The notes below the pieces were generated by a model. It made no database searches. It had not been told where the DNA came from and saw nothing but the letters and a program-made list of their open reading frames with translations. Both the position numbers and the translations under genes were made by a program. A DNA stretch of 64,000 nucleotides from a virus: positions 17,388-81,387 of IMG/VR virus record IMGVR_UViG_3300036827_000193; one strand, given 5' to 3'. This document shows positions 1,034-26,323 of the stretch, piece by piece; the stretch's first letter is position 1; each line of letters begins with the position of its first letter.

Positions 1034-1049
1034 GGATACCCTCTTGTGT

Positions 1050-1867: not shown

Positions 1868-1898
1868 TTTGGGTTGTCCTGTTAGGGGATGGGCGCGC

Positions 1899-2306: not shown

Positions 2307-2349
2307 TGAAGATGATGCCGGGGACTGTTAGCGTCCCGGCTCGATCGAG

Positions 2350-2700
2350 GTGCCCATGGTCAAGACAGCGCTTGCGGCGTTCTTTGCCGCGCTCGTTTCA
2401 ACCGGCGCCCTGGCGCAGGACCAGGCCACGGCGTATTGCCGCGGCATCGGCGCGCGGCCGAACAGCGCCGATGACCGCGAATGCCGGCTGCTGGTGGCGC
2501 AGTTCTATTCCGGCGATCCGTTCTATGCCGCGCTGGCGCGCGCGCAACTGTGGCGGCTGCAACACCGCATGATCGAGCGGCAGCGCGAGCGCGAGGCGCC
2601 ACCCGACTTCTCGCAATACGGCACCACCGCCGCTCCTTCCGCGCAACAGCGCCCGGGGACGAGTTGCGTTGTGGTGGGCAACCTTATCGACTGCGATTGA
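2350..2700 (+). CDS. Secreted hypothetical protein, opposite strand (moron-like)
   Basis: Signal peptide (ALA-Q), four Cys, GAGG upstream; stop abuts the stop of the giant gene. Confidence 0.65.
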   Translation: MPMVKTALAAFFAALVSTGALAQDQATAYCRGIGARPNSADDRECRLLVAQFYSGDPFYAALARAQLWRLQHRMIERQREREAPPDFSQYGTTAAPSAQQRPGTSCVVVGNLIDCD

Positions 2701-5700: not shown

Positions 5701-8700
5701 CTTGTTCTGGACCGCCTCGTGGGCGGCGTAGAGGTATTTCGCCGCCGTAACCGGATCGAAGCGGCGCAGCGCTGCGCGTGCTGACGGTGTCAGTTCGGCG
5801 CGCGCGACATGGCCGCCATGGCCGTGCGCCCAGACCGCATGCAGGCCGGGCAGTCCGAGAAACCCGATATCGGGGCCGCTCAAGGTGCCATCGCGCGGGT
5901 GATTGTGGTGGATGACGATCGCGTTACGCGGATCGCTCGCGATCGCGAAGAGCTTGAGGTCTTGACCGGTGTTGCCAGGACCGCCGCGGGTGTGCGCCAC
6001 GACCTTGCCGTTCTGGTCGACCGCGACAAGATGTTCCAAGCCGGTAGCGATGCCCTGCCTGAGGACGTGGCGCTGTGCCCAGTCGCCGGCGAGCATGTGC
6101 TGGGGGATGGCGATCGGGCCGAGATCGTGCGCCGTGACCTTTGCGGGCTTGGTCTCGCCGGGCTGGAACAGGGCGAAGCCCTGCCCGGTTGCGGCCTGGC
6201 GCAGCGCTGGGGCGATGTCCAGGGTGTGGACGGTGTGCCCCGGATATTTGCTTTTATCCTGCTCCAGAACCAACCCGCGACTTAGATCATTTTGGAAATC
6301 GGCCGGTACTGTTGGCAATTTCCCTTGCCCGACTTTGCCGCCGTACTTCTTGACCAGCTTGTTCGCGGTCTTGGGCAGGATGTCGTCGTAGAAGCCGCGC
6401 ATGCCTTCGCCGCCGACCTTGAGGTCGAGGCCCGAGAGCGTCCTTCGGCCTTTGTCGGTGCCATAAAATCCCGAAGGCTTGCCCTCGCCGGCAGCGATGC
6501 GCGCCGCAACGTCCTTGCCGACGTGGTCGGGCAAGTCCTTTTCCGGAACGCCTTCTGCAATGCGGGTGTTGTCACTACGGCCCTTGAGACGAGCATCGAT
6601 CGTGTAGTGTCCGTCCGCGCCCTTGATGTAGTGCAGGTCGTCGATCTGCTTGCTCAGGTCGTAGCGATCCGCCTGCACATCTCCCGGCGTCCATGCAATC
6701 TTGTCGTAGCCGTGCTCTGCGGCGTAGCGGATGATCCGCTTCAGCGAGAGTTCGGGCCATGTGGTTTTGAACGGGGCGTCGGGGACGCGGGTTCCTTGTT
6801 CGTAGTCCCCATGGATTTTTGCGGAGCGCTGATAATTGTCGACAGCCTCTGCCCGCGCCACGTCTACCGTGTCGCCCCAGCCGGGCCGCTCCGAGCCGTC
6901 CGGCAATGCGAACCAGTGCTTGCCATGATCGCCGTCGGTGCGCACAAACTTGAAATCGCTGTCCGTAAACAGTTTTTGCGGCGGCTGCTTGTAGCCCTTT
7001 TTCTTCCCCGCCTGGTGCCAGTCGCTCTGCACTTCCTCGATGAACAGCGTTTTCTTGCCGTCGATGGTGCGGTCGTTGAAACGGATGTGGGCGAGGACGT
7101 TGGGCTCGTCGAAGTGGGGGGAACGGAAATCTTGATTGGCGGAAGGGGGGCGGTATTCGCGGTCAAACTGCGCGTACCTCTCACGCTCAGCGGGGGACAT
7201 GGCAGCCAGCGTATCATCAGTGCCGGTCGTGCCGTATTTACGGCGCATCTCCATCTCGAAGTCATGCCACGCATCGACTTGCGCGTTGCGCGACGCTTCT
7301 TCACCCGGCAACTTCTCCGGCAGCGTCAGCAGCAGCTCGCGGTAGTTCTCGCCGCCCGGCAGTGTGTACTGCCTGTATTGCGTACCGCCGATGTCGCCAC
7401 CGATTTCTCGCGCAAGATCGGCAACCGCGCCCTCAAAGGACTCGTGATCGCCAAGCATGGTGCCGCGGACAAACGCGGCGTATCCGGTCAGCTCTCCGTT
7501 CTTGTCGTGATAAACATCGATGCCCGTCCCCGTCGACCGGCCAGGCAAGGTCAGTTGCGTGGTCGTCCCGCCTTCATCGTTTTCGACTGGCTCGCCTTGT
7601 GTCCAGTCCTCGATGTCTGACGGCGGTTGCGCGTCGCTTTTCTCCACTTCGCGCACTTCGACCTGATGCGCGCGGACGTAATCGTGCACTTCGGCTTTCG
7701 TCACCGCGCCCTTGTGCTCGCGTAGCCAGTGCTCAAGGCCGAGCCATTCGATCTCCTCGGGCTTGACGCCCGGCGCATTCCTGATGGTGCCGAGCCAATG
7801 GTTCGGCGCCGCCTTGTCCTGCTTGACCGCGGCGACGGCGCGCTCCACTGCGGAGTAGAAGGCTGGCGCATGGCCGAAGGCGTCTTCGCTCTCGGCCAAG
7901 GCAAAGCCGTGTCCCGCCGGTCGCGCCTCTATCGTCTCGAACAAGTGGTCATAGGCCGCTCGGATGCCTTGGTCCCGCATCTCGTCGGCGGTTGGATAAG
8001 CACCACCGGCCGTGTCGATGTTGGCAAGGTAGTCGTTGGCTGCGCCTTTGTCGGCAAGCCGATCGACAATATATCGTTCAAATGAACGGGCGGCCTTCTC
8101 GATGGTCGTGTTCCAGTACGGCTTGGCACGAACCTTGTCGAATTTCGCCGCGCGATCCGCAAAGCCGCCTTTTTGCAGACTGGCCTCGACATTCTTCCAC
8201 GCTTGATAGACCTCGTGACGAACCGGGCCACCGTCGCGGCGGCGCTCGCTGATGTATCCGCTGGCCTGATCCTGCCGCGCGAAGTAGTTATCGAGCGCGT
8301 GCAGCCATTCGTGCGCGAGGGAGCCAGGGCCGCCGCCCTTTGTCAGATTGATGACGACTTGGCCCGGCTCGTAGTGGGCCGATGCCGCATCGCGTCCGCC
8401 ATGGCCGCGAGCGCCGAAGGCAAGCCCGAGCTCGCCGTTCAACGACAATGCCTGGGGCGGAACGCCGACGACATCGGCAAGGTCCATCAGCGCGTCAAAG
8501 GCGCGGTTAAGGTCGGCTTGTCGGCGTTGCCCTTCGACATAATTGCCGAACTGAACCCCGCGGAAGCCGAACGCGCCTGAGAACATTTCCGGGGTGACGT
8601 CGCCCTCGCGCAAGGCCTCGCCGCTGCGCGGTCGGTTTTCCGTGCCGCGCATGTTCGGACCCTTGCGCAGTGCGTCGATGGCCGCCTGCAGGTCGTCCCG

Positions 8701-11700
8701 GTTCTCTTGCAGATATTCTCGCGCAGCCTGCGGTGTTTCAAAGCCGGCCTTCAGCCTTATGACCGTGCTGCGTACCTTAAAACCGAGGAATGCGCCCTTG
8801 GTCTCTCGATCGCGATAAATGCCGACATCGGTATATTTGGACCGCTCCCCGGCCCCCTCGGTGGGCTTTTCTGCCAGGTCGTGAGCGATGATCTTTTTCG
8901 CCAGCGCAACCGCGTCCTCTGGATTGTCGCGATAGGTATACGGGTTGGCGGGGTCGTTACTAAATGGATCGCGCGCGCTGCGACGGTCTGGTGATTCCAA
9001 AAACCAGAACGACTTGGATGGCGAATATCGCTGTCCGTTGAGTATCGAATAGTGACCGGAGTTGACCCGGTAACGCGCGGCCCTTGGCAGATCGGCCGGC
9101 GCAATGTCCTCGATCGCTTTCGCCGTCAGCGGCAGAGTTTGCAGTGCGTAGTTTCCACGCGCTGCCTGCTCAAGCTTGGCGACATCGATCTCGCCGTCCA
9201 GGAGCTGGCGAGCGAAGGTGCGCAGCGTCTCCACCTGTTCAGCCCACCGTTTCGCCTTCCCGGCGACCCGCGGCCGGTTCGGGATCATGTCGCGCATGAT
9301 GGCGATGTGCGAAAGCACGCGCGCGTCGACACCGGCGGCGGCCAGCTTTTCGTAGTCTGGCTGCGGAAACGATTTTGACAGCGGCACCGCTGCGACATCG
9401 AACTTCTCGCGCAGCGAATCGCGAAAGCCCGCAAATGTTTCCTTGCGTGCGCCGCCGATCTTCTCGCCGAAATCCTCGACCTTGGCGACCTTCTCAGGGG
9501 CCGATGTTCTTGTTTCCGATTTGGCGCCGGGCGCGGAATCAGAAGGCCCGGCTGCCCGGGCCTGTGCTGCTTCCGTGTCTGCTGGTTTGTCCGCGGGCTC
9601 GGGCGGTTGCGATGTCAAAACGGGTGGCAGCGCCTTGGCGGGCTTTCGCGCCAGGTCGACAAGATCGGTTTGTTTGCTCTCATCGCCGAACAGCCCTTCA
9701 TCCGCCGGCTTCTGTACTGCCTTCGGCTTCAGGCTTCGGTCGGCGGCTCGCTGGGCGCGCTCGGCGTCTGAGATTTGCTCGGCACCAGGGAGGACGTGCT
9801 GCTGTCCTGCGGCTGTTCGCTCTGTGACAGGTTGAGTTCGTTCACCTGATCGCTTTCCGCCTTGGGCGCGTACTTCTCCGCGTCCCGGTCCTGCGCTCGC
9901 GCCAGCGCCAGATGCAACCCCGCCAGCTTGTGCGCGCTGTGCCGCTTCTTCAACGGCAGGTTCGGTGCGCTCTGGCGCAGGCTTTTCGCCATGCCTCGGT
10001 GGGTGTCGCTCGTCAAGCGCATTGAACACTTCCTCTCCGGCAAGGATACCCTCGACTTTGTCCCGGTGCAATTCATCCGCGATCATGTCCTCATCGCGGG
10101 CATATTGCATGATGACCGATTCGAGGGCGTCCAGCGGGTCCTCGCCGCGGTCGAGCATCCGCTCCATAGCGTCAAACCGCAGCGCCTCTGGCACACTATC
10201 GAGTGGGATTTTCTGTTCTTTCAGCGCGGCATCGAAGATCGGGCGCTGGGTTTCGATCTCTTGCTTGCGCCGTGCGTTGTCCTGCCGGACGCTGGTGCCT
10301 TGGGCGCGAAGTTTTTCTTCCGTGGTCTTGTAGGTCGGCCAAGGCGACCCGCGTCCCTCGTCGCGCATCCTTTGTGCGCGGGCGCGATAGGCCTCCTGAT
10401 TCGCGATCATGCCGCCAAATGGCTTGCCGCCGCTTACGGCATCTTTGGCAGCCCGGGCAGGCTTGTGTTCAACAGCGGCTTCGGCGCCGCCGCCAGTCCG
10501 CCCGTCATCGGCTTCGGCAGTGCGTTCCCCGCCGGCGGTGTCACCCCCAGCGCCGGCCCCTGTCGCGGGATGACCGGTTGCGGCGGCTTGAGGCTCGCGC
10601 CCGGTGCCTTCACCGCGAGCGGGCTCTTGGGGCCGAGCAGGTTCTTCAGGCCGTGCAGCTTCAACGCCGCCTTGATCGACAGCTTGCGCGCCCGCGGCAG
10701 TCGCCCGATCAGTTGTGGCGCCTGATGCCGCAGCGCCCAGCCCGCGTTCAGACCCGTCGCGGGCTTCCAGTAGCTCGGTTGTTGCTTCATCGCCGATGTC
10801 CTTCGCGATCTCGTCGCGGCTCATGTGACCGTCTTCGACCAGCGAGCGCACCACGGCCGTGGTGAAGGCATCATCCGGTGGCGCGCCTTCGTTGGCGTGG
10901 ATCTCGGCGGCGCGAACTATATCGGCTGGCCGTACGGTGTCCGGGTCGACGCCGGCGGCGCGCAGCGTGTCCTCGATGGCCTGGTGGTGCTCGGGGCCCG
11001 CTTCGGGGGCGGCTCCAGCCCGTTCGCCGGAAATTGGAGTAGTCTTGGCGGTGGGTTCCGGCTCCGCCCTTACATTATTAGTAGGCGAGCCATGCGCGGT
11101 TCCCGCTTCGGTCCCGGCCGCTTGCATGGCGGGTGCGGTTTCCGGCGGGGTTTCCGGCGGGTTTTCCGCCGCCATCGCCTCGGAGGCCGCAGCCTTGGTG
11201 TTGCCGGTCTTGAGCCAGTCCTTGAACTCGCCGACCGGCATCGCCCGCATGCCGCCGATGTGCTGGGGCTTCTTCGAGCTGGTGCCGAGATAGGCCTGGA
11301 TGGCTTCGGAGGGGCCATCGAACCCGATCATCGCCTTGTGCTGGCGGAACGCGCCGGTCGCCTCGTCCTTCTCGTCGAGCACATAGACGGTCGGACGCTG
11401 CGGGTTTGGTCCCATGAAGACGTCGACGTGCATGCCGTCGGCGCCTTCGGTGCCTTTTACATAGCCATAAGGTACCGAGTGGGTGGTCTGCCACGCCTCA
11501 CCGGTTTCCGGATTGGTACCGCGGCGCACGCCGCCGGCCGGCGCCTCGATCGTGATGTCGAGACCGTTCCAGCGCATGTGGCCGCGTTGGACATTGTTGG
11601 CTTCACCTTGCTCCGGTGAGTGATCCTGGTCGGCGACGGATGCGGCGCGCGCGACGTCATCGGCGGTCTTGACCTCGACCGGCGCCTCGCGCGTGCCTTC

Positions 11701-13539
11701 CTGCGGCGCTTCGGCGCCGGCATGCACGCCGTTCTTCAACGCCTCATCGACCGCGTCGGCCTTCTCATCCGGCTTCATGCCGGCGACGTCGTCCTTGGAG
11801 TAGCCGTAGCGGCGCAGCACCTCGTCATCGTCGGCGCGCTGTGAGCCGTAGCCGAACTTGGTGTTGACGTAATCCTTGAGGTCGTCGTCGTTCCACGAGC
11901 GGATCGTGTCGCGATCGAATTCCTTGTAGTAGGCCGCGGCCTCCTCGAGCTTGAAGCGCGCGCGCGCGCCCATCTTGGTCTCGAACGGTTGCGGTTTTTC
12001 GCCCGGCTGCTGTTGCTGCGCGCCGGATCCCGGCGCTGATCCCGAACCGCCGCCGGTTTGCTGCTGTTGGTCACCGCCCGCCTGATGGTCCCACTCCCCA
12101 TTCATCGGGTTGTAGTACCAGCGCCCCCCGGCGGCATCGTCGCGATACCACGTGCCATTGAAGCCGCGGCCGCTGGTGCCCCATTGGTAATCGGGATCGT
12201 AGGGATCATCGCGGCGTGGCGACCCGGTCGGGCGCGCGCCCGCGCCGGCAGCACCGGCGCCGCCGGGCGATTCACCCGGGCGAGGACCGCCGCCCGAACC
12301 CGCTGCCGCGCCAGGCGCTTCGCTTCCCGGCAGTGCGCCCGACACCGCGGCTGCCGGCTGATCCGCTGTGGCGGCCGGCTCGGCGGCATTGCGATTGCCG
12401 AATGTCGAAAGCCCGTGCGTGCCGCCACCGACCGCGAGACCGGTGATGTAGCTCGCCAGCATGCGCTTGAAGTCGGGCGTGTAGGCCGCGTTCTTGTCGT
12501 AGTAGGCCGCGGCGATCTTCTGGTTGAGGTAGTCCTGCGCCTCGCCGATGCCGGTAAAGACGACACCGTCACGCAGCGCGTGTTCGAGGGTTGCCGCTGC
12601 CCAGCCGGCGAGGCCAGGTGCAACCTGCTTGACCGGCGCGAGCACGGAGCCGAGCGGGATCATGCCGAGGCCGCCGCCGACAAGCCCGGAGAGCCCGGCC
12701 GCCTTCGCGGCATCGTCGTCGCTCGCGCCCTTTTGCTTGGCGGCGTCGAAAGTTTCCCCCGCAGACGACAGCCCCATGCCGAGTCCGCCCATGGCGAGAC
12801 CGGTGAGCGGGCCGGCTGCGAGACCGCCAGCGACGTACGGCGCTATGCCGCCGATGCCACCCGCCACCTTGCTGGTGAGCGTTTCCTTCTCGGCTGGCGA
12901 CAGCGGCGCGGCTGCCTCGCCGAATTGCTTGACCGATCGTCCGGCCCGGTAGAGCGCGTTGTCCTCGATCGGCGTGGCGCCGACGGTTGCGGTGCCGGTG
13001 ATGTCGCCGCTGTTGGGGTCGACGGTGTCCTGAATATCGGACGGAGCGGTGTTGCCCGATGCTCCGGTGACGGCACGGCCAAGCCGGTCAAGGCCGACGG
13101 CTGCGCCCTGCATGATATCGCCGGTCTGCCCGGTGATGCCCTGCACCGCCGATTTTGCCGCGACGCCAGGCAACGACGACCACGGCACATCCTCGGGCTT
13201 TGCAGCTTTCGCCGACTGGCCGCCGACCGTCGCGGTGCCGGTGATCGGCGGCTCGTCGCTTGGTGCTTCGCCGTACTGCGAGAAGTCGATGGCCGGCGCC
13301 TTGTCGACTTCATCCTGCGTCTTGCCGAACGCGCCGAAATCGGGCTGCGCCTTCTGCGCATCCTGGTGCTGCTGCAGTTGCTGCTGCTGGCGCTTATCGA
13401 GTGTCTTGCGGATGAGGCGGTTGAGCACCGCCTGCGGGTCGACGGCATTGTTCTGGACAAGCTCGGGCGCGCGCTCGGTGATGAGATCGTTGACGATGCC
13501 TTGCGGGTCGACCGCCCCAAGCGCGTCGGCGAGGCTCAT
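2701..13539 (-). CDS. Giant polyvalent ejection/internal virion protein (3612 aa): inorganic-pyrophosphatase-like, LPD5-like, LPD1-like (HExxH) and JAB/MPN-like domains
   Basis: Motifs GLDITIE..PYGYVKGTEGADGMHVDVFMGP (~11200-11600), EDFGEKIGGARK (~9440-9480), FRGVQFGN..SLAHEWLHALD (~7950-8600), FIEEVQSDWHQ..VPDAPFK (~6750-7100), EHLVAVD..HHNHP..LSGPD (~5860-6040); last of three ejection genes. Confidence 0.9.
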   Translation of the reverse strand: MSLADALGAVDPQGIVNDLITERAPELVQNNAVDPQAVLNRLIRKTLDKRQQQQLQQHQDAQKAQPDFGAFGKTQDEVDKAPAIDFSQYGEAPSDEPPITGTATVGGQSAKAAKPEDVPWSSLPGVAAKSAVQGITGQTGDIMQGAAVGLDRLGRAVTGASGNTAPSDIQDTVDPNSGDITGTATVGATPIEDNALYRAGRSVKQFGEAAAPLSPAEKETLTSKVAGGIGGIAPYVAGGLAAGPLTGLAMGGLGMGLSSAGETFDAAKQKGASDDDAAKAAGLSGLVGGGLGMIPLGSVLAPVKQVAPGLAGWAAATLEHALRDGVVFTGIGEAQDYLNQKIAAAYYDKNAAYTPDFKRMLASYITGLAVGGGTHGLSTFGNRNAAEPAATADQPAAAVSGALPGSEAPGAAAGSGGGPRPGESPGGAGAAGAGARPTGSPRRDDPYDPDYQWGTSGRGFNGTWYRDDAAGGRWYYNPMNGEWDHQAGGDQQQQTGGGSGSAPGSGAQQQQPGEKPQPFETKMGARARFKLEEAAAYYKEFDRDTIRSWNDDDLKDYVNTKFGYGSQRADDDEVLRRYGYSKDDVAGMKPDEKADAVDEALKNGVHAGAEAPQEGTREAPVEVKTADDVARAASVADQDHSPEQGEANNVQRGHMRWNGLDITIEAPAGGVRRGTNPETGEAWQTTHSVPYGYVKGTEGADGMHVDVFMGPNPQRPTVYVLDEKDEATGAFRQHKAMIGFDGPSEAIQAYLGTSSKKPQHIGGMRAMPVGEFKDWLKTGNTKAAASEAMAAENPPETPPETAPAMQAAGTEAGTAHGSPTNNVRAEPEPTAKTTPISGERAGAAPEAGPEHHQAIEDTLRAAGVDPDTVRPADIVRAAEIHANEGAPPDDAFTTAVVRSLVEDGHMSRDEIAKDIGDEATTELLEARDGSERGLGAAASGATTDRATAAGAQAVDQGGVEAARPEEPARPQEPARGEGTGREPQAAATGHPATGAGAGGDTAGGERTAEADDGRTGGGAEAAVEHKPARAAKDAVSGGKPFGGMIANQEAYRARAQRMRDEGRGSPWPTYKTTEEKLRAQGTSVRQDNARRKQEIETQRPIFDAALKEQKIPLDSVPEALRFDAMERMLDRGEDPLDALESVIMQYARDEDMIADELHRDKVEGILAGEEVFNALDERHPPRHGEKPAPERTEPAVEEAAQRAQAGGVASGAGASAGPGRGEVRAQGGKRSGERTQPVTERTAAGQQHVLPGAEQISDAERAQRAADRSLKPKAVQKPADEGLFGDESKQTDLVDLARKPAKALPPVLTSQPPEPADKPADTEAAQARAAGPSDSAPGAKSETRTSAPEKVAKVEDFGEKIGGARKETFAGFRDSLREKFDVAAVPLSKSFPQPDYEKLAAAGVDARVLSHIAIMRDMIPNRPRVAGKAKRWAEQVETLRTFARQLLDGEIDVAKLEQAARGNYALQTLPLTAKAIEDIAPADLPRAARYRVNSGHYSILNGQRYSPSKSFWFLESPDRRSARDPFSNDPANPYTYRDNPEDAVALAKKIIAHDLAEKPTEGAGERSKYTDVGIYRDRETKGAFLGFKVRSTVIRLKAGFETPQAAREYLQENRDDLQAAIDALRKGPNMRGTENRPRSGEALREGDVTPEMFSGAFGFRGVQFGNYVEGQRRQADLNRAFDALMDLADVVGVPPQALSLNGELGLAFGARGHGGRDAASAHYEPGQVVINLTKGGGPGSLAHEWLHALDNYFARQDQASGYISERRRDGGPVRHEVYQAWKNVEASLQKGGFADRAAKFDKVRAKPYWNTTIEKAARSFERYIVDRLADKGAANDYLANIDTAGGAYPTADEMRDQGIRAAYDHLFETIEARPAGHGFALAESEDAFGHAPAFYSAVERAVAAVKQDKAAPNHWLGTIRNAPGVKPEEIEWLGLEHWLREHKGAVTKAEVHDYVRAHQVEVREVEKSDAQPPSDIEDWTQGEPVENDEGGTTTQLTLPGRSTGTGIDVYHDKNGELTGYAAFVRGTMLGDHESFEGAVADLAREIGGDIGGTQYRQYTLPGGENYRELLLTLPEKLPGEEASRNAQVDAWHDFEMEMRRKYGTTGTDDTLAAMSPAERERYAQFDREYRPPSANQDFRSPHFDEPNVLAHIRFNDRTIDGKKTLFIEEVQSDWHQAGKKKGYKQPPQKLFTDSDFKFVRTDGDHGKHWFALPDGSERPGWGDTVDVARAEAVDNYQRSAKIHGDYEQGTRVPDAPFKTTWPELSLKRIIRYAAEHGYDKIAWTPGDVQADRYDLSKQIDDLHYIKGADGHYTIDARLKGRSDNTRIAEGVPEKDLPDHVGKDVAARIAAGEGKPSGFYGTDKGRRTLSGLDLKVGGEGMRGFYDDILPKTANKLVKKYGGKVGQGKLPTVPADFQNDLSRGLVLEQDKSKYPGHTVHTLDIAPALRQAATGQGFALFQPGETKPAKVTAHDLGPIAIPQHMLAGDWAQRHVLRQGIATGLEHLVAVDQNGKVVAHTRGGPGNTGQDLKLFAIASDPRNAIVIHHNHPRDGTLSGPDIGFLGLPGLHAVWAHGHGGHVARAELTPSARAALRRFDPVTAAKYLYAAHEAVQNKLYDIINTALLSGRIDRDTANALLPHAVAVALHRAGIIDYRSNSTFGDDIEKLGLGAYIELAAHAARGTVHGPDELPDDRSAGSLRHAGDLGASFARTAEVAAGHVAAPGHDRVGGADDRAQAARAAHGVGLGDAELAGTELAGTGLAEEGRHYTLGAMGDPIRTIKVFKDFWTSAFQPELVSDRALEADPLFARYKARQAQEKDAVVRQSESQWNYWNKRGDAERIRFLDDVESNNTPADATQADMARRYRRILDANWAEEQRYGSRAAFVDDYFPHIWEQPDEWRAFSETRSAQVGPTWFQKKRTYDYISEGLAAGLKLRFTNPVDIVVHRLLSGVDMRQRMELLYQLKDMGLAWEGKQGGEQLVRRGWRAINAPDRQQWVIVPDVQKLWQNGVEAKGLWQAEHVGGSMFRGWMALKNAWVPIKLALSAFHPLHVLHIDQANSLARAWDDLAKGHDLPAALKAAAEGVGTIPTLGMIHYRKGAKARAAWAKRPSQQTPQDKAVVALMTDGGFVPQLSEQLKIAARRQLAVAWRKVLRGEAGASDWRKAVSAAMRRPIEVLQAPLFEKWIPALKAAAYLDQAASLLKRRPGLLADDTNRRIALRAIAKSIDNRYGEMSYGTLFWNRTTKDAAIGSFLSLGWNLGFVREFGGATLEAGTRTAGLLPPFKPSAGRAVTRDATNKIPFVLAYVGTAALIAGIMTNLFTGKQPEGIDYVFPRAGGENPDGSPRRYTTMFYLREVPMLLKHVQERGGNWLSGAGEMLWNKLMFEPFHELLTNRDYYGYNIWDENAPIYQQVWQGVKHFFGDQTNPMSVSGAKHAAELSGKPFPSAAEAIRHPEQYLDALKAKGVGMSVLGFGPAPAYVEKSPIQNRISYLYREHVAPTSRPEEQAQGTEEKMAVRSAILIAKRDHDSKALQDAYQRGKALGLKPGYMQNVGVVPTDIYLFSRLPNEDQKAILLQASKDERNRYWPKAHQTVKNEVNRQVHLPAIPAGALPAGAM
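5313..5492 (-). CDS. Nested 59-aa ORF overprinted on the giant gene (alternate frame)
   Basis: GAGAGGGA SD 6 nt before ATG; protein-like helical sequence MAQTNFQMIDPPGAFDTLATWEHHLHELRKLP..; the host frame is a low-complexity linker here. Confidence 0.65.
   Translation of the reverse strand: MAQTNFQMIDPPGAFDTLATWEHHLHELRKLPQDTLLRQDMIASAEQMIERKRREPRTA
9729..10022 (-). CDS. Nested 97-aa ORF overprinted on the giant gene (alternate frame)
   Basis: GGAGAGG SD 9 nt before ATG; MRLTSDTHRGMAKSLRQSAPNLPLKKRHSAHKLAGLHLALARAQ.. Confidence 0.5.
   Translation of the reverse strand: MRLTSDTHRGMAKSLRQSAPNLPLKKRHSAHKLAGLHLALARAQDRDAEKYAPKAESDQVNELNLSQSEQPQDSSTSSLVPSKSQTPSAPSEPPTEA
10434..10790 (-). CDS. 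Nested 118-aa basic Pro/Leu/Lys-rich ORF overprinted on the giant gene
   Basis: AAGGA SD 8 nt before ATG; the host frame is an Ala/Gly/Arg linker with many A/T third positions. Confidence 0.4.
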   Translation of the reverse strand: MKQQPSYWKPATGLNAGWALRHQAPQLIGRLPRARKLSIKAALKLHGLKNLLGPKSPLAVKAPGASLKPPQPVIPRQGPALGVTPPAGNALPKPMTGGLAAAPKPLLNTSLPGLPKMP

Positions 13540-14801
13540 TAGGTTCCGGTCATCGCGAGATAGTCGTCATTGTTGGATGCGGTCGGCGCCGTCGTGGTGG
13601 CCGGCGCCGCACTCTGGCCGCCCGGTGGTTTGGTGCGCTGGCGCGCCACGCCATTCTGGTCCTTGAACCACGCGCCCATCGGCACCTGCGTATTGAAGTC
13701 GTCGAGCGTCATGCCCTTCGTTTCGAAGGGATTGTCGGCCGCGGTGCCCATGTCCTTGATCTTGTCGGCCTGCTTGGGATCAACGCCGGCGGATTTGTAG
13801 AGCCGGCCGCGGTAGGCCTCGACGTTCTTCGACAGCCGGTCGAGATCCTGCTGCTGCTGCTCGGGCGTCGCGCCATTGAGCGCCCAGCGCTTCTGCAGCA
13901 CGATCTGCTGGCCCTTCTCATATTTCTGGGCTTCGTTCTCGACCGAGATCACCTTGCCGTAGGGTGTGTTCTGCCAGGCGCCCGAGCCGCCCTTGCCGGT
14001 CTGGCCAAGCTCCAGGCTTTTTGCGCGTGCTGCGAGATAGTTGCCTTGCGCGGCGCGGTAGGCCGACTTGTCGTCGGCGTCCTGCGCCGACAGCATGTCC
14101 TTGAATGCGCCCGACGACTGCGTGAACAGGTCGTTCTTGGCCTGGCGCAACTGCGCCTGCTGCTTGCCCTCCTGATCGAGACCGCCTTCGAGGCCGCCGC
14201 CAAAGCCAGCGGCGAATGCCGTGCCGGCCGAGGCGCCCGGCGCCGTCTTGCCGACCGCGCTCATGCCCTTGCCGAGCGCGGCGAGCGAGTTCTGCCATGG
14301 ATTGGTGTTGGTGAGCCCGAGTGCGCCGGCGAGGTTTCCGGTCGAGGTCGGCGGCGGCGCGCCCATCGCGGATGACGGCGGCGGCGCAACCGGCATCGTG
14401 TTCACGCCAAGCGTCGGCCTGGCGTTGGGGGGCAGCGCTGCACCACCGGACGTGATGGCGCCTGCTGGCGTCGGGCCTGACGCAAGGTCTGGCCGCGTTA
14501 TGGCGCTGTCGGGAGTGGGGCCGGAGGCGAGGTCGGGCGTTGCCGACAATGGCCGCGGCTGTGGCAGGGGAATGTCAGGCAGCGCATTCGGCGGTGCCGG
14601 TGGCGGCCCAGGTGGCGGCCCAGATGGCGCCCCAGGCGGCGGCCCAGGTGGCGGAGCTGCTGCCGCGCCCGGCGCCGGCGCAACTGGCGGCGACATCGAC
14701 GGTGGCGTCAGCGGTGTCGACGACAGCGCGCCGCTTGCACCGGGAATACCGAGCAGCGCGCGCATCGCGTCTGCATCGTCAAAAAGGTCTAAAAACCCCA
14801 A
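13539..14801 (-). CDS. Putative ejection (DNA transfer) protein with Pro-rich N-terminus
   Basis: Position between two other ejection genes; GGAGG SD; Gly/Ala/Gln-rich helical core. Confidence 0.75.
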   Translation of the reverse strand: MGFLDLFDDADAMRALLGIPGASGALSSTPLTPPSMSPPVAPAPGAAAAPPPGPPPGAPSGPPPGPPPAPPNALPDIPLPQPRPLSATPDLASGPTPDSAITRPDLASGPTPAGAITSGGAALPPNARPTLGVNTMPVAPPPSSAMGAPPPTSTGNLAGALGLTNTNPWQNSLAALGKGMSAVGKTAPGASAGTAFAAGFGGGLEGGLDQEGKQQAQLRQAKNDLFTQSSGAFKDMLSAQDADDKSAYRAAQGNYLAARAKSLELGQTGKGGSGAWQNTPYGKVISVENEAQKYEKGQQIVLQKRWALNGATPEQQQQDLDRLSKNVEAYRGRLYKSAGVDPKQADKIKDMGTAADNPFETKGMTLDDFNTQVPMGAWFKDQNGVARQRTKPPGGQSAAPATTTAPTASNNDDYLAMTGT

Positions 14802-14816
14802 GGCCGCCTCCTGTTG

Positions 14817-16082
14817 TTAAGCGGCGATGCCGAGCTGGCGCGCGAGGCCGGATGTCTCGGGCTTGATCGCGGCGCGCTTGGCGAGCGCCGCGCGCAGCAC
14901 TTCGTACGGCACGACGGTGCCGGCCTCGTGCGGCACGAACAATTCCGGACCGCGCTCGCCGACGATGGCGGGCTTACCCGGCTCCGGCGTGCCGCCATCG
15001 GCGTACATCGGATAGGAGTAACCATTGCCGTACGAACCTGCCCCGGTCGCCGGGCTCATCGTCAGCGGCGCGCCGGAGCCGGTCTGCTGCGACGAACTCA
15101 GCATGCCCGGGATCGCCATCAGCGAAGTGCCGCCGGTCATCGGCGCGAGCGCTGCGGCACCGAGCGAGCCGACAATGCCCCAGCCGGAATTGTCGGGCGC
15201 AGAGGCGACCTGCGTGCCGTTGGTGGTGCCGTTGGTCGACGTCGTGGTCGGCGCCGCACCCTTGGCGGCGGTGAGATCGGCATTGACGAGCTGCGAGGTC
15301 TGGAACGGATACTGCTGCGCCAGCAGCCATTGATTGTAGGCCGCATTCAAGCCGGCCTGGCTCTGCGCAGTCTGCTGGCCGCCGAACGTATTGTTCAAGG
15401 TCGCGGCGCCGGTATTGGCGGCAAGAATGGCGTTGGCGCCGGTGAGATTGCGATTGAGCGCGGTCTCGTTGAGGTTGGCGTTGGTGGTCGAGGCATTGAG
15501 GCTGTTTGCCACGTCCTGCGCACCAGCGCCGATTGCCGTGTTGAAGGCGGCGTTGTAGGCGTTGCCGACAAGACCCTGCCGCGCGATGTCCTGCTGGTTG
15601 GTCAAGTTACCCTTGCCGAGCGCCCAGCTTGTGTCGCCGAACGCACCGGCGCCGGTCGCGCCGGCATCGAAGCCCTTGTTCTGCGTCGCGAACTGCTGGT
15701 TCTGCGCCTCGAGCTGCGGCTGCAAGGCCTGCGAGACGTACTGGTTCATGTACGGCGACATCGCCGAGTAGATTGGATTTGCCGACACCGAGGAGGCCGG
15801 CGCCGTGGTGTAGTTGAGAAGCGCGCTCGGCACCGCGGAGAGCGCCGGCGAGGTGGCGCCGGCGACGTCGGTGGCAAGGCCAAACGAGGAATTCTGCTGC
15901 GGGCTGAAGCTTGCGACCTGCGGGCCGGAGTATGGCGTGAAGCCGTTCGCCTGCAGGCCAGAGGCGAAATTGACGTTGTTTTGCGCCGCCGTCGTCAGCC
16001 ACGGCGCCGGCGTCGCGGTCGAGGTCGAGGCCGTGCTCGAATTGCTGTTGGTTGTCTTCTGGGTCTCGTTACCGAAGCACAT
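14817..16082 (-). CDS. Putative ejection/pilot (DNA transfer) protein
   Basis: MCFG start after the GNAT gene, NPY-like MSPYMNQYV, GAFG and QQYP motifs; C-terminal ADGG..IVGERGPELFVP module. Confidence 0.8.
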   Translation of the reverse strand: MCFGNETQKTTNSNSSTASTSTATPAPWLTTAAQNNVNFASGLQANGFTPYSGPQVASFSPQQNSSFGLATDVAGATSPALSAVPSALLNYTTAPASSVSANPIYSAMSPYMNQYVSQALQPQLEAQNQQFATQNKGFDAGATGAGAFGDTSWALGKGNLTNQQDIARQGLVGNAYNAAFNTAIGAGAQDVANSLNASTTNANLNETALNRNLTGANAILAANTGAATLNNTFGGQQTAQSQAGLNAAYNQWLLAQQYPFQTSQLVNADLTAAKGAAPTTTSTNGTTNGTQVASAPDNSGWGIVGSLGAAALAPMTGGTSLMAIPGMLSSSQQTGSGAPLTMSPATGAGSYGNGYSYPMYADGGTPEPGKPAIVGERGPELFVPHEAGTVVPYEVLRAALAKRAAIKPETSGLARQLGIAA

Positions 16083-16506
16083 GGGGCGCCTCCTCGCGCG
16101 GTTGCGCGCGAACCTGTCGGTTGTTGCTCTTGTTGAAGATCGTCACCGAGCCGCGGGCCTCTGAAATGACGTGCAGCTCGAGGCCGGAGGCAACCGCGAT
16201 TGCGGTCGCCTCGCGCAGCATCGGCTTCCAGGCCCGCGAGCCCGGCAGCGCGAACGCCCAGCGGTTGGCGAGAAAGGGAAGCTTCGCGTTCCACCAGAAC
16301 GTCGGCCGGATCAGGCCGATGGTGCCGACGAGGCGCTCCTCGGAAATCGCCATGATCGCCACGCTCTCGCGCGCGACGCGCCAGATTTCCGTGGCGCTGT
16401 CCTTGTGGTCGATCGGACCGGGCAATGTCGGCCCGGCGACGACACAGAGGAATTCGTGGATGGCAATGACGTCGGCGTCGGTTTCGGCGTAACGGATACT
16501 GATCAC
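16069..16506 (-). CDS. GNAT-like tail/ejection assembly protein
   Basis: IRYAETDAD start, LVGTIGL strand; canonical position just before the ejection genes. Confidence 0.65.
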   Translation of the reverse strand: MISIRYAETDADVIAIHEFLCVVAGPTLPGPIDHKDSATEIWRVARESVAIMAISEERLVGTIGLIRPTFWWNAKLPFLANRWAFALPGSRAWKPMLREATAIAVASGLELHVISEARGSVTIFNKSNNRQVRAQPREEAPHVLR

Positions 16507-16733
16507 GTGGTGCGATTGAGCCCGCCGCGTTGCAGGATCTGCAACAGCGTCGCGAGCACCGCGTTGGTGTTGGCAAGCGTCGGGGAGGCGACCAGGAGCT
16601 CAAGCGTCTGCGTCACCGCGGCATCGAACATGATGTTCTGCGCCATCTCGACGATGTCTGCCTCGTGGCTGGCGCGTTCGACTTCGCGCAGCGACGACAC
16701 CGGGTCGTGCGGATTGAGGGTGACAGGACGCAT
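16503..16733 (-). CDS. Small tail-associated protein
   Basis: Start MRPVTLNPHD immediately after the tail hub stop; coupled to the next gene. Confidence 0.6.
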   Translation of the reverse strand: MRPVTLNPHDPVSSLREVERASHEADIVEMAQNIMFDAAVTQTLELLVASPTLANTNAVLATLLQILQRGGLNRTT

Positions 16734-16734
16734 G

Positions 16735-18576
16735 CTACCGCCGTGTTGCCGAGGCGCGCGCGAACGCCGCCGGTTTGCCAAGCCGCATGTAGTTGCCGAG
16801 GTCGGAACAGGTCAGCGACAGCGAGATGTAGCGGCCGGACACGCGATAATCGGTAATGCCGGCAGCGACGTCCGGGACGTCCTCGGTTTCCGTATCCATC
16901 GGCACCGTGTCGGTCAGGCGGTCATACGTCGTGACCGTCATCGCGATGGTGCCGCTCTGCTGGAAGAAGTCGGGGACGATGCCCTCGATGTCGAGGTTCT
17001 GCTGCCCTTCCTTGAGGGCGTACGGCGACAGCGACAACGTCCAGGTCAGCGGATTGCCGTTGTCGTCGAAAGTGTCGCCGATCGGGTCGTGGTTATAAAG
17101 GAAGCCATCATTGCCCGCCATGATCGGCGAAGTGTCGCCCTGCGTGAAGTGGCCGCCGCTCGCGCGCCCGGCGGTGACGCCGACGCTGGAATAGAAATTG
17201 GCAAGCCCGACCGACCAGACCTGGTCGTTGATGTGGAAGATGACGTAATTGGTCGGGTTGACGCTGCCGGTGGTCGGGTAGAAGAACCAGATTTCGTGGT
17301 ACTTCGGCACATAGATGGCCGAACACTGGAACGCCAGCGTATCGGGCAGCGCGTCGAACACGTATTTGCGGATGTCCTCGACGTTGGGCATCGGCGACAC
17401 AGCGCCGTTGTAGACATAGAAATTATCCGGCCCCTGCCAGTAGGCGAGGCCGTCGACCGTCACCGCGGCATTGGGCGAGATCAGGCCGCAGTCGCGGCCG
17501 GCAAGGCTCGAATTGTAGACGAATTGCGAGCCGGTATATTGGAACAGGTAGGCCGCGCTGTCGCTCCACACCATGGAGATGAAGGGCGCGAGCGCGCGCC
17601 CGCCGACAAGCTTCGAGCCTTCCTGCAAGGTTCGCGAAAACGCGGTGTTGGCGGTTGCCGGCGTCCAGGTCGTGGGATCGTTCTGGCTGCAGACATTGAC
17701 CACCATGGAATCGCACAGGCCGAAGATGAAGCGCTCCGGCGTGACGAACATGGCGCGGAAGTTGGTCGGCGCACCGTCGACCGGATTGCCGCCGAAGGTC
17801 GCGACCGCGCGCGGCCATGGCTCGGCCTGGGTCGGATCGAAGAACCACAGCGAGCCGCCGTTGTAGGTCGCAATCGCGACCTGCCCGAAGCGATCGAGCG
17901 ACCACACGCGCGGTTCATAGAAGATGGTGGACGAGCCGCGTGCCGTGCCCCAGGTCCCGAGCCCCCACGGCCCCGAGCCCCAGCCCTGGCCGAACGAGCC
18001 GAGCTCGGTGCCGACCGGGATCTCGTATTCGTAGGCGACCGCGGCACCGCCGCCGGCGCCGCTGCCGCTCGCCGTCGTCGTCGCGGTGACGGTGTAATTG
18101 TTGAGGTCGATCACGGTCGCGACGATGAAGGTGCCGTTCATCGTCACGTTGTTGAACGTGGTCGCGCCCGAATAGATCGCGGTGTCGCCGACGTTGAGGC
18201 CGTGGGAGACGTGATGCACCTCGACAGAAGCCGAGCCCGACGCGGTGGTGAACGGATTGGTGCCGAGCGTCCCGGTGGCCCGGAACGGCGTGATGTCGGT
18301 CAATGTGAAGCTTGAGTCGAAGGCATAGAGCTTGCGATAGGTGCCGCAGGCGACGTAGCCGTTCTGCAGGAAGTCCTGCCAGCACATGGTCGCGCGCGGC
18401 GTGCCAGACATCGCGCTCGAGCTGATGCGGATATTGCCGCCGATCTTCTGCGGCCGGCCGTGCACGAAGCGGATCTTGTCGAACGGCAGGATCCAGCGGC
18501 CCTCGGCGACGCGGTCGGATTCCGTGACCACGACACCCGGCGGCGGGTTGATCGGGATCGGCACCAGCGCAGACAT
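16735..18576 (-). CDS. Tail hub/DNA stabilisation protein (P22 gp10/T7 gp12-like)
   Basis: IRFVHGRPQKIGG, WSLDRFG, CGLISPNA, FYVYNGAV, EIWFFYP motifs; size and position. Confidence 0.85.
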   Translation of the reverse strand: MSALVPIPINPPPGVVVTESDRVAEGRWILPFDKIRFVHGRPQKIGGNIRISSSAMSGTPRATMCWQDFLQNGYVACGTYRKLYAFDSSFTLTDITPFRATGTLGTNPFTTASGSASVEVHHVSHGLNVGDTAIYSGATTFNNVTMNGTFIVATVIDLNNYTVTATTTASGSGAGGGAAVAYEYEIPVGTELGSFGQGWGSGPWGLGTWGTARGSSTIFYEPRVWSLDRFGQVAIATYNGGSLWFFDPTQAEPWPRAVATFGGNPVDGAPTNFRAMFVTPERFIFGLCDSMVVNVCSQNDPTTWTPATANTAFSRTLQEGSKLVGGRALAPFISMVWSDSAAYLFQYTGSQFVYNSSLAGRDCGLISPNAAVTVDGLAYWQGPDNFYVYNGAVSPMPNVEDIRKYVFDALPDTLAFQCSAIYVPKYHEIWFFYPTTGSVNPTNYVIFHINDQVWSVGLANFYSSVGVTAGRASGGHFTQGDTSPIMAGNDGFLYNHDPIGDTFDDNGNPLTWTLSLSPYALKEGQQNLDIEGIVPDFFQQSGTIAMTVTTYDRLTDTVPMDTETEDVPDVAAGITDYRVSGRYISLSLTCSDLGNYMRLGKPAAFARASATRR

Positions 18577-21652: not shown

Positions 21653-22201
21653 ATGACCAAGGCTGACACAGCCTACATTAGATTCATTGACGCAGGGCGG
21701 CGGTTTAACCGCCTTACCGCCATCGAATTTGTCGGCTACGAAGCGACGCCGCGCAGAAAGCCGCTCTGGCGTTTTCGGTGTGACTGCGGGAACGAGTGCA
21801 TCAGCCGCACCGAGAGCGTCAGAAGCGGGAATACAAAAAGCTGCGGATGTCAAAAGGTCGACAGCACTCGGAGGGTTGGCCATGCCAATTTTGTGCACGG
21901 CCAGAGCGACACGAGGATTTACCGAATCTGGCACGCCATGCTGCATCGCTGCAGCAACCCGAAGAATGAAAAATTTGAATACTATGGCGGTCGCGGAATT
22001 TCGGTTTGCCGCGAATGGCACTCAATCCACGATTTCAGAGATTGGGCGCTGGCCAATGGTTACGCCAAGAACCTCACGATCGACCGGTATCCCGACAAAG
22101 ACGGAAACTACGAGCCCCGCAATTGCCGGTGGGTGACGATAGAAGAGCAGCAGACGAACCGCCGCCCGCGCCGCTGGTTGAAACGACCCCCCGTCGCGTG
22201 A
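21653..22201 (+). CDS. Free-standing HNH homing endonuclease
   Basis: GRRFNRLT, CDCGN, TKSCGC, YRIWHAMLHRC, YGGRGISVC, TIDRYPDKDGNYEPRNCRW; GGAG SD. Confidence 0.9.
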   Translation: MTKADTAYIRFIDAGRRFNRLTAIEFVGYEATPRRKPLWRFRCDCGNECISRTESVRSGNTKSCGCQKVDSTRRVGHANFVHGQSDTRIYRIWHAMLHRCSNPKNEKFEYYGGRGISVCREWHSIHDFRDWALANGYAKNLTIDRYPDKDGNYEPRNCRWVTIEEQQTNRRPRRWLKRPPVA

Positions 22202-23629: not shown

Positions 23630-26323
23630 TTACGCCGCGCTGTCCCACATCACGACCCGCGAGTTGAGCGAGTCGGTGTGGACCAAACCAAAACCGCCGA
23701 GGTAATTGATTGTGTTCACCCGTCGTCGCTAACGACGGGCCGAGACGACCTTTTTGTAGGTCAACTCTGCTGGCTCTTTCGAACCAGTCCAGACCATATC
23801 TTCAGTGACGCAAGTTGCTTTTTTGCGTTACTGCTGGGGGCTTCGGTGCGCTTGCACCTACGAGCTTTCGCTCTGGTCGTTGAAGCTTCCTCTGCGTGAG
23901 AGGCTCGCCTGCTGATTATCCAATCTCAGAACTTTTCAGGCCGTCACGCCTGCGGTCGCCCGCTACGTTGTGGCGTTCTGAGCTTTAGGAACTTCCAGCA
24001 ATTCTCCCAGTTTTTACGCCTAGCATTATTCTCTACCAGGCGATGCCCCGGCTGCGACCGTAGTCGCCCGGGATCTTCGCGCGGACTTCCTCGGGTACGC
24101 ACACGGCTTCAGTGACCGTGTCACCGCCGCAGAAGAACGCCCAGGAAGACAGGCCATTCGTCCACGGTTGCGCAACGCCGCTCCACGGATCGTACGACGT
24201 GGCATTCGCCGCGCCGCCCTTGGGAACGAACGTCTGCTCGATGAAGCGGCAGGACTCGTACCTGCCGATTTCGCCGTTGAAGATGTGCGCGAGACCGGTC
24301 TCGGTGTACTGGTGGATGGTCTCGAGCGAATTCTTGAAGTTGCGATACGTGGTCGGATGCGACACCGCCACGTAGTCATCCGCCGTGAACGGCGGAATGT
24401 TTCGCTCCTTCATGGTGTCGACGATCGCCTTGACGTGCCCGGTACCGAGCGCGACGTTGTTCGTCACGGTTGCGGTGCCGTTGGTGTCGAGGTTGATGGC
24501 GGTCGTCGAAGTGCTGGAAGACGGCTCGGCGCGCAGCAGAGTGTTCTTGAACTGCAAGAACGACTCGATGTCGAAGTATTTGCGCGCGTCGTCCTTCAGC
24601 GTTTTGTCGATGATCGCGGCGACCTGATGCTTCGCCAGCGCGACCAGCTTGCCGGTGTAGGGAACGCTATTCCCAGCTTCAAAGCAGAATTGTTCTTTGC
24701 CGCGGCTCTTTATCCGCAGCCTCAACCGCTCGCGCGATTGCTCAGACTATCTCTTGCAGATTACTGTGATCTGCCCGGGCGCTCGTGGTCGGATTATTCT
24801 TTCGTCACCGACTAGTCGTTACGCCTTCCGCGCCCCTGGGGCTCTCGCCTTACATGCGCGACTTGGCTCGGGATTGTCTCTGAGAGAGGTTCCCCGAATT
24901 CACCCGGTGTTTCACCTTACGCGGCGAGCGCGAAGGTGCGGCCTGTGTTGACCGTAAGCTGGTGTTGCAGCATGACGAACCCGGTCTCCGGGATCGGGGC
25001 GCTTTCGTCCAGCCGGCGGCCTTGCGTGCCGAGGTTGGAATAAACGTCCCAGTTGAACTTGTCGCCGCGGTTGAGGCCTTTCTTGGTGCCATCCTCGGCG
25101 TCGCAGAGCTGCCGCATCTTGGTCAGCGGCTGCACCTGCTGGCGGAGCACGTCCGACAATTCGTCGGAGTACATGAATCCGCCCTCAGTGGGGACTGCCT
25201 TTTGTTCGCACGATCCCGTTTGTGGATCGTTCCTGCATCTTTCAATGCAGAGCAGACTATATCTTGAAATCTTCTGCCGGTATCCCACATACATCCCTAG
25301 CGGGGAAACACATGCGCATCACCAAATCACAACTCGTCGCCCTCTACGCAAAGAGGACTGACGATCAAATCGGCAAGCTGTTCGGCGTAACCGGCCATTC
25401 AGTTGGCGATTGGCGACGGCATTATGGCATCCAGCGCAAACCAAGAGAGACTTACAACAAGTATACCCTTGATCGCGATTTTTTCGCGAAGATTGACACC
25501 GAAGAGAAGGCGTACGCGCTCGGTCTTATAGCGTCCGATGGATGGGTGGCCCGATCTGGAAAGCAAGTGAGCCTTGCTCTTCAGGTTCGAGACCGGCACA
25601 TCCTTTATGATCTTCGACGCGCCCTGAAGTCGGATGCTCGTGTCTTCGACAAGGCGAGAGGCGGCTTTGCCGGCTCTGGCCCGCGGAAACAGATTACCTT
25701 CGACAGCAAGAAGCTGGTCGCCGATCTGGCGCGCTGGGGTGTCATCCCCGGAAAATCAGTCACCCTCCGCTACCCCCGTATTCCGAAACATCTTGAGTGC
25801 CATTTTGCGCGAGGACTTTTTGACGGGGATGGGCACATTCGCGCCCACCCGAAAAAGCTCTTTTATTTTCTTGGCACTTCCGACCTGATCGACGGACTAC
25901 GAAAGTCGATCATCCGACATACGGGCGCGGCGCTCGCCAAGTACGAGGCCGTGGGCTGTTGGCGGATTTCTGGATACGGTGGCAGCGTCGCGGTGCTGCG
26001 GTGGATGTATGAAGATGCGACGATCTGCCTTCGCAGGAAGCATCGCGTCTTCTTGAGGTACTGGAAGTGATGTCCTGGGCGCTCGTGGGACCGATTATCG
26101 TCGGGGTCTCACAGTCCTAGTCGTTGAACCTTCCGAGCTACAGTTTCCCCTGCTCGGCTTGGCTGCTGATCGGCCAATCCCTGATCTTTTCGCGCATTCA
26201 CGCTCGCCCTCTCGGGCCACGTTGTAGCGATCAAGGCTCTAAGGCTGTTCCAGCAATTCACCCAGTGCGCACTCTGAACTCGCATTCAGAGGGGGGCTAA
26301 GTTACCCACAATTGTCCTGCCAT
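23630..26323 (-). CDS. Major capsid protein (N4-gp56-like, ~330 aa) in four exons: 26323-~26305, ~25198-24951, 24684-24035, 23706-23630
   Basis: Spliced frame MAGQLW/AVPTEGGFMYSDELS..QLTV/FEAGNSVPYTGKL..GEIGRYESCRFIEQ..GRSRGIAW/YYLGGFGLVH..WDSAA; follows scaffold; AAGGA SD. Confidence 0.92.
23707..24034 (-). ncRNA. Group I intron 3 in the capsid gene (328 nt, no ORF, apparent terminal A)
   Basis: P1 cgcctggt/gctaggcg with U.G; P gaattgctggaa, Q aatcagcag, R ttcaacgacca, S aagatatggtc; P10 taat/atta. Confidence 0.9.
24685..24950 (-). ncRNA. Group I intron 2 in the capsid gene (266 nt, no ORF, canonical U|...G|)
   Basis: P1 cggt/gccg with U.G; P gaattcgggga, Q aatcccgag, R gtaacgacta, S aagagatagtc; removal restores the frame (gt|c ttt gaa gct). 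Confidence 0.93.
25199..26305 (-). ncRNA. Group I intron 1 in the capsid gene (~1.1 kb, homing endonuclease in the P8 region; boundaries uncertain by 1-2 nt)
   Basis: P gaattgctggaa, Q gatcagcag, R gttcaacgacta, P3 ctgggtg/cgcccag, S aagatatagtc, P9 ctgcat-tgaaag-atgcag. Confidence 0.9.
25312..26070 (+). CDS. Intron-encoded LAGLIDADG homing endonuclease with N-terminal HTH, antisense to its intron
   Basis: AYALGLIASDG and HFARGLFDGDG motifs; FFAKIDTEEKAY; GGGGA SD before ATG 25312. Confidence 0.9.
   Translation: MRITKSQLVALYAKRTDDQIGKLFGVTGHSVGDWRRHYGIQRKPRETYNKYTLDRDFFAKIDTEEKAYALGLIASDGWVARSGKQVSLALQVRDRHILYDLRRALKSDARVFDKARGGFAGSGPRKQITFDSKKLVADLARWGVIPGKSVTLRYPRIPKHLECHFARGLFDGDGHIRAHPKKLFYFLGTSDLIDGLRKSIIRHTGAALAKYEAVGCWRISGYGGSVAVLRWMYEDATICLRRKHRVFLRYWK

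Follow-up and report, generated by a model that had tools for sequence, protein, structure and literature searches.

Does a group I intron in the major capsid gene of what looks like an N4-like soil phage end in A, and can the exons on either side of it still be joined if it does? To our knowledge, group I introns have two or three features that are regarded as universal, and a terminal G is one of them, since the last base of the intron enters the pocket that also binds the G cofactor. A first-pass annotation of the locus had nevertheless placed an A at the end of the third of the three introns in the gene. Here we ask whether that base is fixed by homology and by the fold of the ribozyme, where it came from, and what becomes of the capsid message.

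A capsid gene in four exons

The window (the whole stretch of 64,000 nucleotides analysed, in which all positions below are counted) covers positions 17388-81387 of an IMG/VR virus record of 81,387 bp, judged complete by CheckV, and has a G+C content of ~65%. Its capsid protein matches TIGR04387, the N4 gp56 family model, and an ORF of 3612 aa at 2701-13539 (minus strand) fits, by size alone, an N4-type virion RNA polymerase. In genome collections, the closest capsid genes come from contigs assigned to Xanthobacteraceae bins (91% identity) and from Bradyrhizobium sp. BRP22, in the latter case from a contig of 65 kb; these relatives point to a host that is probably a soil alphaproteobacterium. 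No further group I intron was found in the first 17 kb of the record, where the 10 ORFs scanned gave phage-type matches or none, with no integrase among them.

The capsid gene is present as a single copy in the 81-kb genome. Rfam model RF00028 detects three group I introns between 26313 and 23770 on the minus strand (68.1, 50.7 and 42.4 bits), and we set the exon borders from intronless relatives, namely Escherichia phage PTXU04, Vibrio phage 219E41.1 and the viral locus L005, the closest of these at 89% identity. The resulting features are as follows.

23630-26323, minus strand: major capsid gene (N4 gp56 family), four exons and three group I introns
26323-26305, minus strand: exon 1, border from intronless relatives
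25198-26304, minus strand: intron 1, ~1107 nt, with a homologous intron in the viral locus L008
25222-26070, plus strand: LAGLIDADG ORF, antisense within intron 1
25197-24951, minus strand: exon 2, border from intronless relatives
24685-24950, minus strand: intron 2, 266 nt, canonical, preceded by U24951 and with G24685 as its last base
24684-24035, minus strand: exon 3, border from intronless relatives
23707-24034, minus strand: intron 3, 328 nt, ORF-less group I intron of subgroup-IA type, 68.1 bits against RF00028
23706-23630, minus strand: exon 4, with the stop codon at 23632-23630

Joined, the four exons encode 330 aa with a single terminal stop, and this spliced model aligns gap-free with the intronless 330-aa protein of L005 at 295 identical positions. 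Exon 4 differs from its relatives by 5-12 synonymous and 2-4 non-synonymous codon differences. Intron 2 serves as an internal control, its junction LTV/FEAG (the slash marking the splice point) agreeing with L005.

The terminal base of intron 3

Exon 3 ends in ...GGC ATC GCC TGG T at 24035, and the in-frame continuation downstream of the intron reads ...AT TAC CTC GGC GGT TTT GGT, so that intron 3 is inserted between bases 1 and 2 of the Tyr codon that follows an invariant Trp, in the motif AW-YY-LGGFG. This motif is rarely interrupted: of the 80 viral relatives examined first, 78 carry G(I/V)AW-Y-Y-L-G-G-F-G or a close variant in one piece, and AW(Y/F)(Y/A)..G(F)G is read through without an insertion at every one of the 72 loci of a second viral set and at 15 of the 16 loci from bacterial genome assemblies, giving ~165 homologues with an uninterrupted motif across the two viral sets and the genome loci. 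At the DNA level the viral relatives mostly carry TGG TAC TAC CTC or TGG TAT TAC CTC. Only T/AT, in which U24035 is joined to A23706, or the equivalent TA/T, restores AW-YY-LGGFG; since a single Tyr codon is needed across the junction and either division of it leaves A as the last intron base, homology confirms A23707 as the predicted terminal base of intron 3.

No placement that ends in G keeps the motif, each such alternative inserting, deleting or destroying invariant residues. Ending the intron at G23719, which the first-pass annotation had recognized as the nearest in-frame G and had correctly placed within a P9 hairpin (now resolved as P9.2), yields W-LNTIN-YLGG, as it had said; G23717 brings in a UAA stop; and the downstream in-frame G23698, absent from that annotation, gives W-C-GFG. 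With the 5' site at U24038 or U24043 instead, the invariant Trp is lost, and sliding both splice sites jointly by -3 to +2 nt never produces a terminal G. Two further ideas were set aside: TadA-type A-to-I editing at A23707, a base that does not lie in a UACG loop, and a 2-aminoadenine genome, whose modified base would be absent from RNA. The spacing of GAACA, 5 nt and the terminal (omega) base, which introns 2 and 3 share, was not used to locate the site, other family members having 2-4 nt there.

The predicted ribozyme is intact. Intron 3 matches RF00028 over its full length (model positions 1-253) at 68.1 bits, above the curated gathering score of 50, and folds into the elements below.

24042-24035, minus strand: P1 5' strand, CGCCUGGU; U24035, the last base of exon 3, forms a U.G pair with G24024
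24028-24025, minus strand: P10 guide strand UAAU, directly 5' of guide base G24024
24024-24017, minus strand: internal guide, the P1 3' strand, GCUAGGCG, pairing with CGCCUGGU at 8/8 positions
24010-24006 with 23838-23834, minus strand: P3, a core element
P4-P6 with a long P5 extension, and P8, minus strand: core elements, present
23878-23874, minus strand: P7 5' strand GACCA; G23878-C23792 is the G-binding pair
23873-23862, minus strand: P7.1, GAGCgaaaGCUC, a hairpin between P7 and P3'
23858-23845, minus strand: P7.2, GGUGCaagcGCACC, a hairpin before P3', with two compensatory pairs relative to the homologous intron of L061 (below)
23796-23792, minus strand: P7 3' strand UGGUC, pairing with GACCA
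23788-23791, minus strand: J7/9, UGGA; G23789 and A23788 form P9.0 with C23708 and U23709
23787-23770, minus strand: P9, a hairpin
23767-23742, minus strand: P9.1, a hairpin
23740-23718, minus strand: P9.2, a hairpin that holds G23719 in its stem
23707-23717, minus strand: single-stranded 3' tail, GAACACAAUCA, of which A23707 is the terminal (omega) base
23706-23703, minus strand: P10 exon strand AUUA, the 4 nt with which exon 4 begins

The presence of both P7.1 and P7.2 marks subgroup IA, an assignment that stops short of the IA1/IA2/IA3 level. The region from P9 to P9.2 (23718-23787) has a fold z-score of -3.9.

Two pairings bear on the 3' site. The P10 helix AUUA/UAAU comprises 4 Watson-Crick pairs in the single register that continues P1, for which we calculate a chance probability of ~0.004, and P9.0 joins bases 3 and 4 after P7 to the two bases that precede the terminal A. 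The same two-by-two P9.0 pairing recurs with other bases in intron 2 (AG with CU, before G24685), in intron 1 (CU with AG, before G25198), in an intron of L050 (AA with UU) and in the intron of L008 (UG with CA), and thus covaries among five related introns. Neither G23719 nor G23698 has a P10 or P9.0 pairing. The fold thereby bears out the main structural statements of the first-pass annotation: P1 sets the 5' site after U24035, the loop bases taat pair with exon bases atta as P10, and the G-binding pair of P7 is canonical. Its central claim, that intron 3 ends in A23707, is upheld by homologues, by pairing and by the related intron described below.

The letter itself was checked against independent assemblies. 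A Logan contig from run X1, a soil metagenome that may be the source sample of the record, has A at 23707 with a word depth of 24.7 and is identical to the window over all 601 nt compared, so the A that the first-pass annotation had wanted to see in reads is confirmed in this probable source sample only. A contig from run X3, from a second study, is identical over 23714-24073 and ends 7 nt short of 23707; run X2 (word share 0.91) yielded short unrelated pieces only, with no bearing on the base.

Related introns and the origin of the terminal A

A homologous intron occupies the identical site, TGGT/, in the viral locus L061 (IMG/VR 3300002461_000087, 4650-5452), and is 77% identical to intron 3 over the core. 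Folding the two cores together with RNAalifold gives 70 pairs, 18 of them compensatory with both sides changed, which argues that the structure of both ribozymes has been maintained. The two do not differ in J6/7, P7 or J8/7, and L061 forms the same P1, with one-sided and two-sided changes. The introns differ at the 3' end: that of L061, which the first-pass annotation did not include, terminates in the usual G (...UCUCCG/ACUAUCUC), has its P10 out of register and allows one P9.0 pair instead of two. P10 length accordingly runs from 4 bp in intron 3 through 2 bp in intron 2 to none in register in L061. The 3' part of the L061 intron carries an ORF that resembles an HNH endonuclease by eye, as does L050; intron 3 has no ORF.

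Comparison of terminal bases in homologous introns, which the first-pass annotation had proposed, did not find the A shared, the sole same-site homologue ending in G. Intron 1 and its L008 homologue aside (below), the other capsid-family introns that could be delimited likewise follow U and end in G (two each in L011 and L050, one in L059, one in L075 and intron 2 of the window). With L061 and these other introns ending in G, and with the pocket unchanged, the terminal A is derived: on this comparison A23707 is a G-to-A change that is uncompensated in the G-binding pocket. Given that it is not conserved in the one homologue at its site, it could be of recent origin.

Searches for closer relatives returned little. 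The 16-mer GGGAGAATTGCTGGAA matched 80 loci, among which only L061/L148 is a close relative, while the matches in L102, L155 and L088 have the P3-P6 half in common with intron 3. A pattern of the guide with P3-P4 found only the L061 contig (as L179) among metagenome contigs, and the match of pattern GTGAACACAATCNATTACCTC to L178 among viral contigs was discarded as chance in an AT-rich contig. The second viral scan with P0031 and the bacterial genome scan revealed no other intron at the intron 3 site. Two proteins, P0031 (ending GIAWLN) and P0063 (ending GIAW), may signal more insertions there.

Intron 1, on which the first-pass annotation was silent, has a peculiarity of its own at the opposite end. 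The closest relatives read MAGQLW-AIPTE-GG at this site, and obtaining MAGQLW-AVPTE in the window would need UGG G/CA GUC, in which G26305 precedes the intron and G25198 terminates it; the alternative that keeps a U.G site would give a terminal C and the product W-V-VPTE. The homologue in L008 begins with the same TGGG/U and presents the same two options, and in both introns the P9.0 pairs given above favour the version that ends in G. As predicted from these alignments, the non-canonical 5' site of intron 1, after G rather than U, is conserved between two diverged phages.

Probable splicing with A in the omega position

We consider it reasonably probable that intron 3 is a working intron with A in the omega position, its exons probably being ligated more slowly than they would be with G, and that splicing, which we infer from the state of gene and ribozyme, persists. 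The first-pass annotation had likewise proposed that ligation may be altered or slowed, or may depend on a helper protein. The intact, ORF-less ribozyme of subgroup-IA type would carry out an ordinary first step, in which an exogenous G bound at G23878-C23792 cuts the RNA just 3' of U24035, the U in the U.G pair of P1. In the second step U24035 would be joined to A23706, and the departing intron would end in A23707. The 3' site would be set by the 2-bp P9.0 together with an unusually good 4-bp P10 stacked on P1, helices that may partly make up for lost G binding. A23707 itself would have arisen by a G-to-A transition from an L061-like ancestor, the G-binding pocket remaining unaltered. In favour of splicing, the capsid gene is essential, single-copy and otherwise perfect, and its ribozyme is intact; the sequence is, moreover, abundant (~25 depth) in one soil sample and its intron identical in a second study. 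Against it stand the unchanged G-binding pair, the absence of the A from L061 and a possible prophage state. No run listed as containing this DNA is recorded as RNA.

Experiments with the Tetrahymena ribozyme bear on the unchanged pocket. Michel and colleagues (1989) and Been and Perrotta (1991) reportedly found that a pocket specific for G selects strongly against A as the last base during ligation, and that laboratory mutants ending in A required a matching A-U in P7 to be ligated. Intron 3 resembles those engineered mutants in combining a terminal A with a G-C binding pair, but the A-U change in P7 that they needed is absent from it.

The alternative that best survives, though we regard it as unlikely, is that the change of the terminal G to A is recent and blocks ligation, leaving a dead or crippled allele in a defective phage or prophage, or in a variant maintained by co-infection. 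The capsid protein would then end at TGG-TAG, minus its last 25 residues. Such an allele would fit the G at the end of the L061 homologue, the lack of any compensating change in the G-binding site and the observation of A at 23707 in one sample only; related capsid genes, furthermore, lie on megabase-scale bacterial contigs, so that a prophage, where a dead allele could survive, is conceivable. It fits less well with the intactness of the rest of the gene and of the ribozyme, with a depth of ~25 and the recurrence of the intron in a second study, or with a genome that looks like that of a complete N4-like phage, 3612-aa ORF included. The P10 of intron 3 is, besides, stronger than in its G-ending relatives, as would be expected of adaptation rather than accident.

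Ligation at a cryptic 3' site is improbable. In model introns cryptic G sites are used once the terminal G is mutated; G23719 and G23698 are both in frame with U24035, and would yield W-LNTIN-YLGGFG and the three-residue-shorter W-C-GFG, respectively. Both products, however, break a motif from which the ~165 homologues depart little or not at all, both sites lack the P10 and P9.0 that A23707 commands, and G23719 is sequestered in P9.2. As for a sequencing or assembly error that conceals a G at 23707, the window derives from one metagenomic contig, and the X3 contig stops just before the base, but the agreement of the IMG/VR record with the X1 contig, at that depth and with 0 differences in 601 nt, makes an assembly slip unlikely and the error itself very hard to credit.

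A working intron 3 that ends in A would have a natural counterpart. The hexacoral mitochondrial intron ND5-717, found in sea anemones and mushroom corals, has A as its last base, and its exons are exactly ligated in vivo (PMC6545197, PMC8146996); the first-pass annotation had correctly cited a coral ND5 intron as an exception of this kind. It has been suggested that its terminal A prevents 3'-site hydrolysis and circle formation (PMC8146996). Both are group I introns that interrupt an essential protein gene and have A as their last base. ND5-717, however, is eukaryotic and organellar, vertically inherited, fixed across an animal group and host to genes in P8, whereas intron 3 is a small, ORF-less intron of phage IA type with a G at the end of its sole close homologue. 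The likeness is one of trait only.

By its architecture intron 3 belongs instead with the phage introns of T4 td, nrdB and sunY and of Twort orf142 (RF00028), with which it shares the core, P7.1/P7.2 and the U.G pair of P1. Phage IA introns, like those here, may occur several to a gene, are mobile and have homing-endonuclease relatives; those of T4 and Twort end in G, and the gene that intron 3 interrupts encodes the major capsid protein of a soil phage of N4-like type. The exception of a terminal A is already known from coral mitochondria. For that reason, and because we infer the splicing of intron 3, the value of the case as an exception is limited.

What the case offers is a comparison. 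The intron of L061 shares the site, P1 and the P7 pair of intron 3 and differs in its terminal G, its ORF and its weaker P10 and P9.0, and the two form a natural G/A pair, one ribozyme at one site with the pocket unchanged, that makes a clean system. Such a pair could apportion 3'-site choice and ligation rate between G binding on the one hand and P9.0 and P10 on the other, and could put to the test the suggestion that wasteful hydrolysis at the 3' site is suppressed when the intron ends in A. In annotation, intron finders that demand a terminal G would misplace the junction of an intron like this one, or call the capsid gene broken.

Taken together with the G that precedes intron 1, these observations raise the tentative idea, for which we would put the prospects as rather low, that both supposedly universal splice nucleotides are relaxed in one essential gene whose introns 1 and 3 still splice. 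If that were true, P10 and P9.0 would define splice sites well enough without the canonical bases in this lineage of phage introns; alternatively, a helper would define them, for example the antisense LAGLIDADG protein of intron 1 acting as a maturase.

Splice borders and 3' tails of the capsid-gene introns

At the first of the three group I introns in the N4 gp56-family capsid gene, homology with L005, the closest intronless capsid relative (MAGQLW-AIPTE), obliges the cut to fall after G (UGG G|CA GUC), with G25198 as the terminal base; were the U.G site retained instead, the terminal base would have to be C. P9.0, which is CU/AG in the window and UG/CA in L008, a locus carrying a homologue of intron 1, speaks for G preceding the intron. 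The two introns have a TGGG|U start in common. Intron 1 and its homologue both break the U.G rule, and this exception is conserved between them.

Intron 1 borders: window 26304-26306 and 25197-25200; L008 counterparts 1693-1695 and about 2785-2790

Every capsid-gene intron seen carries in its 3' tail the motif (G/U/C)(A/G)A(C/A)A, in most cases GAACA, directly after the last hairpin and 2-5 nt upstream of the terminal base; no pairing partner was found for it.

Tail motif: window 23717-23713, 24696-24692 and 25208-25204; also in the intron-bearing capsid-family loci L050, L011, L075, L059 and L061

Other insertions near the intron 3 site

A related, ORF-carrying intron in L050 is inserted at YYLG|GFG, 9 nt downstream of the window's W|Y site, and has G as its terminal base; by eye, its ORF reads as a putative HNH endonuclease.

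L050 4649-5443: related intron, carries an ORF

An identical read-through peptide terminates two related capsid proteins, P0043 and P0119, and this second site is therefore used in several contigs. Two other called proteins, P0031 (307 aa, C-terminus GIAWLN, 82% identical to exon 3) and P0063 (224 aa, C-terminus GIAW, 79% identical), break off precisely at the window's own insertion site, pointing to further phages that would carry an insert at W|Y.

Reading frames within and beyond the introns

Window 25222-26070, + strand: 282-aa ORF within intron 1, antisense to it; Pfam LAGLIDADG_3
Window 21653-22201, + strand: 182-aa ORF, 1.4 kb downstream of the capsid gene, on the strand not used by the late genes
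L253 (record bases 1-17387, upstream of the window) 11345-13267, + strand: 640-aa ORF, large-terminase PHROG match

The product of the antisense ORF (LAGLIDADG_3 match, 30.5 bits) could be a homing endonuclease or maturase, and a comparable antisense stretch seems to be present in the L008 intron. The 182-aa ORF, Cys-rich by eye and without a match in Pfam or NCBIfam, could encode a free-standing endonuclease. Only the C-terminal third of the large-terminase PHROG is matched by the 640-aa ORF (profile positions 321-518 of 555), so that a split terminase gene, or one fused to another sequence, is possible; Rfam detected no group I intron there.

Capsid relatives on bacterial contigs

Phages of this N4-like type are usually considered strictly lytic. 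The clade's N4 gp56-family capsid genes are also present on megabase-scale bacterial contigs, which suggests integrated or mis-binned relatives of the phages.

L266: capsid gene, 2.9-Mb contig of an Aestuariivirga MAG
P0040: capsid protein, 6.3-Mb contig
P0108: capsid protein, 702-kb contig
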